Shown here: positions 47,897-53,419 of the stretch, piece by piece
How the letters are laid out: every line of letters starts with the position of its first letter
Numbering within the stretch: the stretch's first letter is position 1
Source of the DNA: Corallococcus silvisoli
GTDB taxonomy: Bacteria; Myxococcota; Myxococcia; Myxococcales; Myxococcaceae
Direction: 5' to 3'
NCBI RefSeq assembly: GCF_009909145.1
Contig: NZ_JAAAPJ010000005.1
Location: 400,470-464,469 of the forward strand
Length of the DNA stretch: 64,000 nt
Position numbers and translations under genes: made by a program
Notes under the pieces: generated by a model
Told to the model about the DNA's origin: nothing
Seen by the model: the letters and a program-made list of their open reading frames with translations, nothing else
The model's database searches: none

Positions 47897-47931
47897 TCCG
47901 TTTCACGGACTTCCGTGGCGCCTGCGCCGCC

Positions 47932-47953
47932 CGCTTCCGGTTCGCCGGAAGCG
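47932..47953 (+). terminator. Hairpin (CGCTTCCGG-TTCG-CCGGAAGCG) followed by a GC/T stretch. Candidate intrinsic terminator of the ABC-F gene.
   Basis: Perfect 9-bp inverted repeat 36 nt after the TAA at 47894. Confidence 0.4.
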
Positions 47954-48157
47954 AGGCGGCGTTTTCGTGCGCGTGGGCTGGAGGTTTCACGAATCACGGC
48001 GGCTCGTCACGACGGGGCACGGCGAGCTCTTGCGCGGCCCCGTCGGCGGCCTTCCTCTGCCTCCCTGCGCCCGCCCCCCCTCACCAGGACCCGCATCTCT
48101 CCTATACTCCGCGGACGCCGCTCAACGGCGGTCTCGTTCACGAGGGGGGCCTCCACC

Positions 48158-50806: not shown

Positions 50807-50818
50807 GCGTGCACCGCC

Positions 50819-51607
50819 TCAACCGACGTGTTCACCGTTGCCATGCGCCTTCAATGCCGCCGCCAGGTAGTCCCGGCGCCGCTCGAAGCGATCCCGGGGA
50901 ACGCCCCACTCGCCGGTCATCTTGGCCTGGTTGGAGAGCACGTCATAAAGGCCCTGGAGGTCGTTGTGGGCGATGATCTCCTGAATCTCCCTGCGGGTCG
51001 CGGGCGTGTAGTCACCTCGATACCGCAGGTCCACGACCACGTCCTTGATCGCGGGGTCCAGGTTCTCCCAGTCGACGTTGCCATATTTGGCGACCGTGTC
51101 TGACTTGCTGGAGATGCGCTTCACATCCGCGGCGTATTGGCCATACACGGCGCTGAACAGCTTCTTCTGCGCCATCGGTGAAATCTGGATGACTTTGACA
51201 TCAGCCCTGGCGATGAAGTGGGCCGCCTCATTGCCGGTCAGCTTCGCGCCCTGGGCGAGGAGTTCGGCGTCCCCCCGGGGCACACCCGCGGCGATCAGAT
51301 CGGAGACGACGGACTCCTGGGTCCGCTCTCTCATGTCGTAGCCGCGGCCAATCGTGACCCCCGAAGCGCCTCCGGGACAGTGGGCCTTGCGGCTGAAGTA
51401 GGCCCCCCTCGTCTCCTGCCCTTCGGCATCGAACGTGAGCTGCCCCTCCGGAACGGAGAAGTCGCTGACGAAGGTCTCCGGCGTGGAACTCTGGGAACCA
51501 GGATCGAGCAGGTCTGTCATATTTTCGACGAACTGTACCGGATCAAAAGCGGGCGTGGGAGGCGGTCCGTCTTCATCGAGCCGCCTGAAACATCGTAGGG
51601 AGTGCAA
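50819..51607 (-). CDS. Signal-less GH24 (T4/P22-type) lysozyme-like protein.
   Basis: Catalytic-Glu region and TIGxG motif (EGQETRGAYFS...GVTIGRGYDM). Lysozyme C-lobe-like AIKDVVVDLRYRG. Lower-GC codons. The start may be the later Met at ~51520. Confidence 0.55.
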   Translation of the reverse strand: MHSLRCFRRLDEDGPPPTPAFDPVQFVENMTDLLDPGSQSSTPETFVSDFSVPEGQLTFDAEGQETRGAYFSRKAHCPGGASGVTIGRGYDMRERTQESVVSDLIAAGVPRGDAELLAQGAKLTGNEAAHFIARADVKVIQISPMAQKKLFSAVYGQYAADVKRISSKSDTVAKYGNVDWENLDPAIKDVVVDLRYRGDYTPATRREIQEIIAHNDLQGLYDVLSNQAKMTGEWGVPRDRFERRRDYLAAALKAHGNGEHVG

Positions 51608-53419
51608 TCGAAACGGAGCGGGGCCGTGTCGCTACACATGGGCATGACGATCCCCCCCTCTCCGTTGTTCGGCGCCCGCAGGCTCCTCGGCATCCTGCTG
51701 CTGCTTCCCCTTCACGTCGGCGCTGTCCCCCTCCAGGAGGATCCCGCGGAGCAGCTCGTGGGCCTCTGGGGCAGCGAACGCGTCATGGGGCCCCAGGTCC
51801 GTGGGGAGCTGACCCTGGTGCGTCGCGAGAGCACCTGGTCCGCGCGCATCGCGGGATTCGAGCTCCCGGCCCGGGTCGACGGCCGGAAGGTCTCCGTCGT
51901 CCTTCCCGATGGTCAGGGCGAGCTGCGAGCGACCCTGGCGGAGGACGGCACGAGCATCGCGGGTCATTGGATCCAGCCGCGGACCATGAGCAACGGCATG
52001 GCGTTCGCCACGCCCGTGGAGCTTCGCGCGCTCCAGACCGGCGTCTGGCGCGGGGTGGTGGCGCCCCTGGAGGATCGCTTCTCACTGTATCTGGTGGTTC
52101 AGAAGCAACCCGACGGCTCCGTGGCCGCGTTCATCCGCAACCCTGAACGGAACTTCGGCAACCGGATGCTGTTCCAGGTCCAGCTCCGGGACGGCGCCGT
52201 CCAACTCACCCCCGTGGCCGGAAACCCTCGGCTTGAAGGCACGTTCGATGCGGACTCAGGACGCTTGTCCTTGGTCCATCCGTTCCTGGACGCGACCTTC
52301 GACTTCACGCGCCGGACGCGGTCCGAGGCCGTGGGCCTTTACGCGCGCACGCCCGCCCCGGGCCCTTACGTCTACCAGAAGCCCGTGGGTGAAGAGGATG
52401 GCTGGGCCACGGCGTCACTCGCCGACGTCGGGATGCAGGTCGAGCCCATCCAACAGCTCGTGCAGCGCATCCTCGACCAGGAGCCAGGACAGGAGCCGGC
52501 GCCCGCCATCCAGGGGCTGCTGATCGCGCGCCACGGGAAGCTGGTCGTCGAGGAGTATTTCCGGGGCTTCGACAAGGAACGCCCGCATGACCTGCGCTCC
52601 GCGTCGAAGACCTACGCCTCCCTGATGATAGGCATCGCGTTGGATCAGGGCGCCCCCTTCACCGTGGACACTCCGGTGGTCTCGCTGTTCCCTGAATACA
52701 AGGGGAAGATTTCGAACCTGGACGCGAACAAGCGCAAGCTCACCGTCGCGCACCTGATGACCATGTCGACGGGGTTGGCCTGCGACGACAACGACCAGGC
52801 CTCTCCAGGAAACGAGGACCGGATCGATGACAGTGTGCCGGATTGGTACAAATACACGCTGGACCTCCCCATGGTGCGCAAGCCCGGTGAGAAGGCGGTG
52901 TACTGCTCCGCGAACATCAACCTGTTGGGCGGAGTGCTCCGCAACACCACCCGCACGTGGATTCCAGAGTTCTTCGAGAAGCATGTCGCCAGGCCGCTCC
53001 AGATGCGCGGCTACCACGTCAACCTGATGCCCGACACAGAGCAGTACCTGGGCGGTGGCATCTCCATGCGTCCACGCGACGCGCTGAAGCTCGGGCAGCT
53101 CTACCTCGGCGGAGGAACGTGGAATGGAAGGCGCGTCGTGAGCCAGCGCTGGGTGGAGCGTTCCACCGCCCAGCACGCGACGATGGAGCCCGGGCGAACG
53201 TATGGCTACGCCTGGTGGCGCCACGAGTTCCGCGTGGGTGACCACGTGTACTCGGAATACGAGGCCGGAGGGAACGGAGGACAGCTCGTGATGGTCATCC
53301 CCGAGCTCGACCTCGTCGTGATGTTCACGGGAGGCAACTACAACAATTCGGCCGTCTGGCGGAAGTTCCGGGAGGAGCTCCTGCCTCAGTTCATCATGAG
53401 CGCCGTCACCCCGAAGTAG
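51602..53419 (+). CDS. Secreted beta-lactamase-fold serine hydrolase (class C beta-lactamase / DD-peptidase-like family) with an N-terminal extra domain.
   Basis: Signal peptide. SxxK motif SASKTY. YxN-like and C-terminal beta-lactamase-fold regions. An alternative start at ~51638 (MGMTIPP) is possible. Confidence 0.75.
   Translation: MQSKRSGAVSLHMGMTIPPSPLFGARRLLGILLLLPLHVGAVPLQEDPAEQLVGLWGSERVMGPQVRGELTLVRRESTWSARIAGFELPARVDGRKVSVVLPDGQGELRATLAEDGTSIAGHWIQPRTMSNGMAFATPVELRALQTGVWRGVVAPLEDRFSLYLVVQKQPDGSVAAFIRNPERNFGNRMLFQVQLRDGAVQLTPVAGNPRLEGTFDADSGRLSLVHPFLDATFDFTRRTRSEAVGLYARTPAPGPYVYQKPVGEEDGWATASLADVGMQVEPIQQLVQRILDQEPGQEPAPAIQGLLIARHGKLVVEEYFRGFDKERPHDLRSASKTYASLMIGIALDQGAPFTVDTPVVSLFPEYKGKISNLDANKRKLTVAHLMTMSTGLACDDNDQASPGNEDRIDDSVPDWYKYTLDLPMVRKPGEKAVYCSANINLLGGVLRNTTRTWIPEFFEKHVARPLQMRGYHVNLMPDTEQYLGGGISMRPRDALKLGQLYLGGGTWNGRRVVSQRWVERSTAQHATMEPGRTYGYAWWRHEFRVGDHVYSEYEAGGNGGQLVMVIPELDLVVMFTGGNYNNSAVWRKFREELLPQFIMSAVTPK

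Follow-up and report, generated by a model that had tools for sequence, protein, structure and literature searches.

Cargo proteins of extracellular contractile injection systems (eCIS) have a published layout in which a disordered N-terminal loading sequence is followed by an optional DUF4157 domain and a variable C-terminal effector domain, and DUF4157 is a strong marker of the eCIS-associated toxins (EATs). DUF4157 is found in about half of the predicted eCIS toxins, for the most part in proteins without an annotated effector domain. In EAT14, DUF4157 is combined with a transglutaminase-like domain of Cys-His-Asp type, and the protein has proved toxic to E. coli and yeast. Many EATs have been reported without an adjacent immunity gene. 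Among the genomes in the supplement of Geller 2021, eCIS are borne by 25 of 28 in Chitinophaga, 6 of 12 in Myxococcus and 1 of 3 in Corallococcus, with named loci in M. xanthus DK1622, M. fulvus HW-1 and C. coralloides DSM 2259. The present paper deals with a stretch of 64,000 nucleotides from Corallococcus silvisoli (contig NZ_JAAAPJ010000005.1, positions 400,470 to 464,469, forward strand), hereafter the window, whose coordinates are used throughout unless a locus name precedes them, and focuses primarily on gene A, which encodes an 882-residue protein led by DUF4157, and on its convergent neighbour, gene B, a muramidase gene. The order of parts in the gene A protein matches the published eCIS cargo layout. 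The explanation which we favour, with moderate confidence for the composite as a whole, is that gene A is an orphan eCIS-type DUF4157 cargo with a papain-like core, carried in a variable hotspot beside an independent muramidase.

The N-terminal half of gene A is composed of the following parts.

48158 to 50806, forward strand: gene A, a DUF4157-led protein of 882 residues with a probably disordered N-terminal region, DUF4157 and a C-terminal module of about 600 residues.
48158 to 48535, forward strand: N-terminal region, residues 1-126, rich in Pro, Ser, Ala, Arg and Gly, with FDFASIPI and SSPEDPFEREADAVADKVM motifs.
48536 to 48766, forward strand: DUF4157 / eCIS_core domain (PF13699), residues 127-203 (Pfam E 7.4e-27, 93.8 bits, cutoff 22).

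The first-pass annotation, which was made from the sequence alone, had described an open reading frame (ORF) of 882 codons from 48158 with DUF4157 and an HExxH motif, and this description is borne out. Membership of gene A in the DUF4157 family is virtually certain, and the HExxH zinc-binding-type motif within the domain, HELAH, occupies residues 194-198 (48737-48751) and is kept in homologues. PF13699, formerly DUF4157, now bears the name "eCIS_core" (eCIS core domain). The ATG start that gives 882 residues is credible because the N-terminus, MFAFDRKPRPSS, is kept in orthologues at the protein level, MFAFD(R/Q)KPRPSS being conserved in Myxococcus, Pyxidicoccus and metagenomic orthologues. By composition count, P, S, A, R and G make up 59% of residues 1-126 and the longest hydrophobic run is 4 residues; since these 126 residues hold no hydrophobic segment, the protein probably has neither a Sec nor a Tat signal. 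Such a composition would suit a disordered loading sequence. In addition, the motif EREA(D/E)AVAD(K/R)VM of this region is common to a homologue embedded in an eCIS cluster (locus L022, described below). A homologue search with the 126 N-terminal residues, for other cargo with the same loading sequence, gave two weak short matches only, and the counts of "LQRxxGN" and "PPxFxL" in the N-terminal regions of the family were too sparse to use.

The C-terminal module, residues about 285 to 882, was conserved as a single unit in about 20 homologues in the first homologue search. A helical lid, a divergent core that is predicted to be papain-like and bears Cys382 and His535, a long coiled coil and, at the C-terminal end, a short conserved motif make up the module, and its parts lie as follows.

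49010 to 50032, forward strand: predicted papain-like catalytic core, residues about 285-625, with Cys382 at 49301-49303 and His535 at 49760-49762.
49430 to 49657, forward strand: variable disordered linker with both PPSCG motifs, residues about 425-500, gapped in most homologues and modelled with a predicted local distance difference test score (pLDDT) below 50.
50216 to 50638, forward strand: charged helical hairpin (coiled coil), residues about 687-827, about 140 residues long in the structure model.
50648 to 50806, forward strand: C-terminal motif LP(F/Y)GxVHPG...TG(K/R)LAD......W and Pro-rich tail, from the homologue alignment.

On the evidence of profile searches the family of this module is real but rare: among 1.84 billion cluster representatives, 232 members were found at E <= 1e-3 and 142 at E <= 1e-30. 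Its spread over the phyla is patchy, and a scan of one genome per species (about 185,000 representatives, with restrictive peptide patterns) gave five loci, in Myxococcus qinghaiensis, Longimicrobium, Chitinophaga cymbidii, a metagenome-assembled genome (MAG) of Kofleriaceae and a MAG of Planctomycetales. The Planctomycetales member (L016:8897-11786) is broken into two overlapping ORFs (8897-11089 and 10770-11786), and this split is either a frameshifted pseudogene or an error of MAG assembly. PF13699 was present in 39 of the 54 longer family members that were scanned, and no other trafficking domain was found in the 54. The module gave no match in Pfam (the core, at E <= 10), NCBIfam, PHROGs or PADLOC, and profile searches of the PDB with the C-terminal region gave coiled coils only (alignment A2) or, with the core-only alignment A8, nothing at E <= 10; it is a unit of about 600 residues without earlier annotation.

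Four columns are invariant over the 112 family members of alignment A5, including Cys382 in the motif QRVHAQxC (QRVHAQYC in the window protein) and His535 in GxHSVIF. In the core alignment A8, which has 19 members, Gln375, seven residues before Cys382, and Gln565 do not vary, Gln565 being also near-invariant (>=90%) among the 112 members; these two glutamines are candidates for the third catalytic residue and the oxyanion-hole residue. AlphaFold2 models were obtained for the whole C-terminal module (pLDDT 82) and for the trimmed core (pLDDT 81, predicted template modelling score, pTM, 0.82), and in these Cys382 stands where a helix begins or just ahead of it, and His535 starts the second strand of an antiparallel sheet, after a GDWLY strand. 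The structural neighbours of the trimmed core are mostly papain-like, and the best of them are almost all cysteine hydrolases: CHAP endolysins (6ist at 6.8, 8h1i at 6.7, and 4olk), NlpC/P60 enzymes (8er5, MepS, CwlO, RipB and LytE), glutathionylspermidine amidase and a CdiA-CT toxin (8ssm). A Foldseek search against the PDB gave no significant match, the top one being the CHAP-type glutathionylspermidine (Gsp) amidase at E 0.46. Judged from these models, the core is likely to be a very divergent papain-like Cys/His hydrolase, placed by its fold and belonging to no named family.

A papain fold of NlpC/P60 or CHAP type had been suggested earlier from two PPSCG motifs ahead of GDWLYIYNANASEGGGHSVIFSHW. 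Both motifs are indeed there, at residues 449 and 470, with GDWLYIYNANASEGGGHSVIFSHW beginning at residue 519, and the suggestion stands at the level of the modelled fold; the cysteine, in turn, is Cys382 and not that of PPSCG. The PPSCG cysteines were considered as catalytic residues and rejected: the linker which holds them is missing in many homologues, is modelled at pLDDT below 50, and the invariant cysteine is Cys382. The same linker is gapped in the eCIS-embedded homologue of L022 as well. The charged coiled coil also described in that annotation is helical in the model, with 40% charged residues in residues 687-830, and behind it P832, H837, G839, G852, D856 and W863 are invariant or nearly so in the homologues.

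The closest tie to injection systems is given by two metagenomic loci. In L022, a Pvc16_N gene (tail terminator) and an Afp15/Pvc15-type WHD+AAA ATPase gene are followed by the family member, a weak CIS_tube match and a Phage_base_V spike gene. This member is 35% identical to gene A over residues 274-706 (E 1e-67) and keeps the Cys and His motifs, DUF4157 and EREADAVADxVM. In L018, collagen-repeat and tail-fibre-like genes and a WHD+AAA ATPase gene of the same type precede the family member, which overlaps the end of the ATPase gene and is itself followed by two more DUF4157 proteins, one of them with PT-HINT. An upstream extension of L018 was sought by metagenome scan and nothing was found. 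The neighbouring cargo candidate at L018:12693-16145 combines DUF4157, a weak T6SS Tse3 N-terminal-like region (T6SS, type VI secretion system) and PT-HINT (pretoxin Hint), that is, a polymorphic-toxin architecture in an eCIS effector array. Moreover, L017 contains five tandem DUF4157 genes, of which the family member is the fourth. The earlier remark that DUF4157 occurs near contractile injection systems is thereby upheld for the gene A family itself, through L018 and L022. In Myxococcaceae, Kofleriaceae and one unclassified ENA contig, by contrast, none of the genes around the family member is related to it. Chitinophaga, Myxococcus and Corallococcus, for which eCIS counts are given above, are genera that have such orphan copies.

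The position of gene A in the genome was compared between two strains, the second being represented by L004, a contig of a close Corallococcus relative (the sister strain). By blastn, 44853-47975 of the window matched L004 at 97.6% and 50845-56619 at 94.7%, with nothing between. The segment and the elements at its borders are as follows.

47942 to 47959, forward strand: terminator-like hairpin with T-run behind the ABC-F gene; of the conserved elements it is the nearest to the left junction.
47976 to 50844, no strand: strain-variable segment of 2.87 kb, holding gene A only; in L004, 6.9 kb of defence genes.
51638 to 53419, forward strand: secreted beta-lactamase-fold (PF00144) protein of the flank (Pfam E 2e-31), about 93% identical at the protein level to that of L004.
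53450 to 54070, forward strand: Cys-rich lipoprotein of the flank, 206 residues, with a lipobox-like N-terminus and 95% identical in L004.

The slot in L004 (L004:5801-12569) is filled with a PD-Lambda-1/SNIPE nuclease gene (PADLOC E 1e-152) and a gene for an Hhe/PDC-S37-type DUF4011 helicase of 1729 residues. The slot between the ABC-F gene and the muramidase gene thus varies from strain to strain, with gene A as its cargo in the window, and behaves as a hotspot for accessory genes of defence or competition. The right junction falls within the last codons of gene B, whose protein ends in ...KAHGNGEHVG in the window and in ...KAR in L004; its last 8 codons (HGNGEHVG, 50819-50844) differ from L004 and belong to the strain-variable segment, so that the junction has cut into the 3' end of gene B. 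The hairpin at the left side is weak evidence alone, since 2 terminator-like sites were found and 2.0 are given by shuffling. Integrase, tRNA and direct repeats were not seen at the junctions. Gene B, the beta-lactamase-fold gene, the lipoprotein gene, BrkB and rfbC are conserved flank, because they are matched in L004. The number of synonymous substitutions per synonymous site (dS) against L004 rises toward the hotspot (region 51355-56619), being 0.05 for the ABC-F gene, 0.09 for BrkB, 0.14 for the lipoprotein and 0.19 for the muramidase. As to the beta-lactamase-fold gene, its long GTG-start ORF overlaps the TTG start of gene B (51602-51644), and the true start is probably the ATG at about 51638-51644, because the upstream extension has an in-frame stop in L004.

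If gene A is an eCIS cargo, to which we give slightly better than an even chance, the protein would be made in the cytoplasm of the producer without a Sec signal, its probably disordered N-terminus would be recognised, and an Afp15/Pvc15-type AAA+ ATPase would thread it into the eCIS tube, the particle being encoded elsewhere in the genome. Released with the particle, it would work in the target cell as a hydrolase that depends on cysteine, with peptidoglycan (as an amidase/peptidase) or a protein (as a protease/deamidase) for its substrate; amidase or peptidase activity on peptidoglycan or protein is favoured because of the nearest folds. The missing immunity gene is consistent with many reported EATs. 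Several facts weigh against this account. The first-pass annotation had found no contractile machinery in the window, and this holds: no eCIS or T6SS core gene was found among the large ORFs scanned in the 64 kb, and no sheath, tube, baseplate or AAA core gene, so that gene A lies outside the eCIS proximity of about 10 genes. Likewise, no eCIS or T6SS core gene was found within 10 kb of the Pyxidicoccus and M. fulvus orthologues or of the Kofleriaceae homologue, and no Afp15-type ATPase at the M. qinghaiensis locus. In AlgoCIS, the sole system studied in this respect, DUF4157 is dispensable for loading, so that the domain is no proof of delivery. No conserved immunity gene adjoins any family member, which fits eCIS toxins and equally a non-toxic role. 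Finally, the pairing of Cys and His in the core is predicted from sequence and secondary-structure positions.

Two other fates of the protein have to be weighed, and both are improbable to about the same degree. According to the first, gene A is not exported at all, and its product is an intracellular or envelope DUF4157 metallopeptidase-like protein acting on the wall or proteins of the producer, comparable to a mycobacterial DUF4157 gene by ripC. The window without secretion machinery, the orphan state of the myxobacterial copies and the missing immunity gene agree with this, as does the conservation of mycobacterial DUF4157 genes beside an NlpC/P60 gene in organisms which are not known for eCIS. 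However, gene A is strain-variable and sits at another locus in every genus, the five species representatives out of about 185,000 given by restrictive peptide patterns are not like a housekeeping distribution, relatives lie inside eCIS clusters or DUF4157 effector arrays, and the N-terminus is modular, DUF4157 being present in some members and absent from others, as is usual in polymorphic cargo. According to the second, the protein is an effector that leaves the cell by another route, namely T6SS, outer-membrane vesicles or the myxobacterial contact-dependent killing apparatus. Myxobacteria possess several killing systems, some T6SS effectors hold DUF4157-like domains, and gene A is an orphan in all the cultured genomes examined; against this, PAAR, VgrG, Rhs or any other T6SS marker was found in none of the 54 longer members scanned, and the sole machinery adjoining family members is of eCIS type (Pvc16_N, WHD+AAA ATPase, CIS tube and gpV spike).

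It is still less probable that the C-terminal module is no enzyme and serves as a structural or adaptor part, such as a scaffold built on its coiled coil or a component of the particle that resembles a tape measure. A coiled coil of about 140 residues would suit such a role, the fold match of the core is weak, and tape-measure-related CIS (contractile injection system) effectors have been described in Streptomyces. One Cys and one His, however, are absolutely invariant in 112 divergent members and stand at the positions of a papain-like dyad in the models, an invariant Gln precedes the Cys by 7 residues, and the best structural neighbours are, as described above, almost all cysteine hydrolases.

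The first-pass annotation had further proposed that genes A and B were acquired together as one horizontally transferred peptidoglycan-targeting lytic or toxin module, in which an amidase-like enzyme acts beside a muramidase. The neighbour is described as follows.

50819 to 51607, reverse strand: gene B, a pesticin-C-terminal-like muramidase, 262 residues from a TTG start or 233 from the ATG at 51520, which is the start in the NCBI annotation.

The description of gene B as an opposite-strand ORF of 262 codons beginning 12 bp past the stop of gene A, with a lysozyme-type signature and no signal peptide, proved accurate, and the ORF holds FDAEG, TIGRGYD and DLRYRGD; the two genes are convergent. 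Its assignment as a phage/T4-type lysozyme needs refinement: gene B belongs to the pesticin/T4-lysozyme-like muramidases, and GH24/Phage_lysozyme (PF00959) gave no match at E <= 0.1; the tie to GH24/Phage_lysozyme runs through the pesticin branch only. The match to Pfam Pesticin PF16754 (E 8e-4, 19.8 bits) is under the cutoff of 25.8. Homologues at 68-70% identity have recorded PF16754 matches, weak where shown, and bear the NCBI name pesticin C-terminus-like muramidase, and a profile of 20 family members found the pesticin crystal structures (4aqn, 4epf and 4arq) at E 5.6e-4. The catalytic residues of pesticin are Glu178, Thr201 and Asp207. The putative catalytic residues of gene B are Glu62 (51422-51424), Thr85 (51353-51355) and Asp91 (51335-51337), all invariant in 20 homologues; in the profile alignment, Thr201 and Asp207 are the counterparts of Thr85 and Asp91, and Glu and Thr are 23 residues apart in both proteins. 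In this large family, fusions to LysM, SH3 or PAAR domains occur, and so do members with a signal peptide. Gene B is under somewhat relaxed purifying selection, the ratio of nonsynonymous to synonymous substitution rates (dN/dS) against the sister strain being 0.32 for it and 0.08-0.18 for its neighbours. As a pesticin-type muramidase conserved by vertical descent and independent of gene A, gene B is an ordinary conserved gene.

No muramidase was found within 10 kb of gene A relatives at 11 independent loci (L001, L002, L007, L008, L012, L013, L014, L016, L017, L018 and L022), and no homologue of DUF4157 or of the C-terminal module near muramidase relatives at three independent loci (L004-L006, L010 and L011). 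An all-against-all ORF comparison of 9 gene A loci gave no conserved neighbour of gene A, including an immunity gene. As for composition, the guanine + cytosine (GC) content at third codon positions (GC3) is 0.87 in gene A and 0.79-0.82 in gene B, against 0.937 +/- 0.026 in 33 other genes of the window (z -2.6 to -5.7 for the two genes), so the atypical composition noted earlier is real as far as both genes show lowered GC3. It does not single out the pair, however: the beta-lactamase-fold gene and the lipoprotein gene, both at 0.86, share the dip, and the strain-variable segment has a GC content of 0.696 against 0.67 for the flanks. Because the dip extends to genes of the conserved flank and GC is not low in the variable segment, composition is no marker of an acquired pair, and the evidence for the mobility of gene A is synteny. 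Genes A and B very probably do not form a module, and their adjacency is coincidental. The two-gene proposal, which could appeal to convergent genes only 12 bp apart, to lowered GC3 and missing signal peptides in both, and to two folds found among cell-wall hydrolases, is largely refuted and very improbable, since L004 retains gene B and the flank with defence genes in place of gene A, the junction lies within the last codons of gene B, relatives of the two genes are co-neighbours in none of the loci compared, convergent genes cannot share a transcript, and the low GC3 runs on over the conserved flank.

In Stigmatella and Archangium, the muramidase homologues (L010:8001-9994 and L011:8001-9981) are proteins of 317-328 residues that have a Ser-rich extension at the N-terminus and lack a signal peptide, and 3-17 bp past each muramidase gene begins a gene for a lipoprotein-like protein of about 335 residues with SPDG repeats, 72% identical between both genera. 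This muramidase and the lipoprotein-like protein are possibly an effector-immunity pair. In the window, the Cys-rich lipoprotein and the beta-lactamase-fold protein were considered as immunity partners of the muramidase, and no supporting evidence was found for either. Other genes of the window include, at 36994-41961, those for a secreted Kelch/HYR/cadherin-like repeat protein of 1097 residues and then an OmpA + thrombospondin-type-3 repeat protein of 556 residues, both unrelated to genes A and B, and, at 8290-10227 and 13940-16288, those for a secreted CotH-kinase-domain protein and an InhA-like M6 metallopeptidase.

No new kind of system is described here, and the proposed two-gene lytic module does not exist. 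The C-terminal family, whose putative catalytic residues are invariant, whose structure is modelled with confidence and whose members are directly linked to eCIS operons, is a tractable candidate as an eCIS toxin and for payload engineering, and a single Corallococcus hotspot can hold either an effector gene or anti-phage defence genes. A more far-reaching idea, which is offered tentatively and is less probable than not being so, is that the module constitutes a new family of CIS enzymatic toxins with a substrate unlike those of the known CHAP, NlpC/P60 and C39 enzymes, and that it may travel as mobile orphan cargo of predatory Myxococcaceae, traded via anti-phage defence hotspots.

In comparison with known systems, gene B has the Glu-x23-Thr-x5-Asp arrangement of the pesticin C-terminal domain and the T4-lysozyme-like muramidases in identical form. 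It is without the Ser-rich N-terminal extension of about 100 residues and the conserved downstream lipoprotein-like partner of the Archangium and Stigmatella homologues, and relative to these it appears to have lost both. The slot of gene A resembles the defence or competition islands with conserved flanks, in that one site holds different accessory cargo in two close strains; it differs in that no integrase, tRNA or direct repeats were seen at its junctions. The core of gene A agrees with the papain-like clan CA families NlpC/P60, CHAP and C39 in having its Cys at or just before the N-terminus of a helix, and its "GDW-LYxY ... G-HSVIF" pattern resembles "GDLxF ... HVGIY" of NlpC/P60. It differs from them in that neither a sequence-level match to any of the three nor a significant Foldseek match is found, in its large helical N-terminal lid and in a Cys-His spacing of about 150 residues, which is due to the inserted disordered linker. 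From the DUF4157-bearing EATs (Geller 2021, Danov 2024; EAT14 of Chitinophaga rupis and AlgoCIS Cgo1/Cgo2) gene A is set apart by the lack of an injection-system gene in 64 kb, by a C-terminal module which falls in no Pfam family and has no sequence relationship to Transglut_prok or other annotated toxin domains, and by the extra coiled coil of about 140 residues and the conserved C-terminal motif; toxicity and loading of gene A are putative. What it has in common with them is the same order of parts, an HExxH motif in DUF4157, probably the lack of a Sec signal, and an adjacent immunity gene that is often missing; relatives of it are encoded, like these toxins, right behind an Afp15/Pvc15-type ATPase, and EAT14 has a Cys-His(-Asp) domain of the papain superfamily, as is predicted for the core of gene A.

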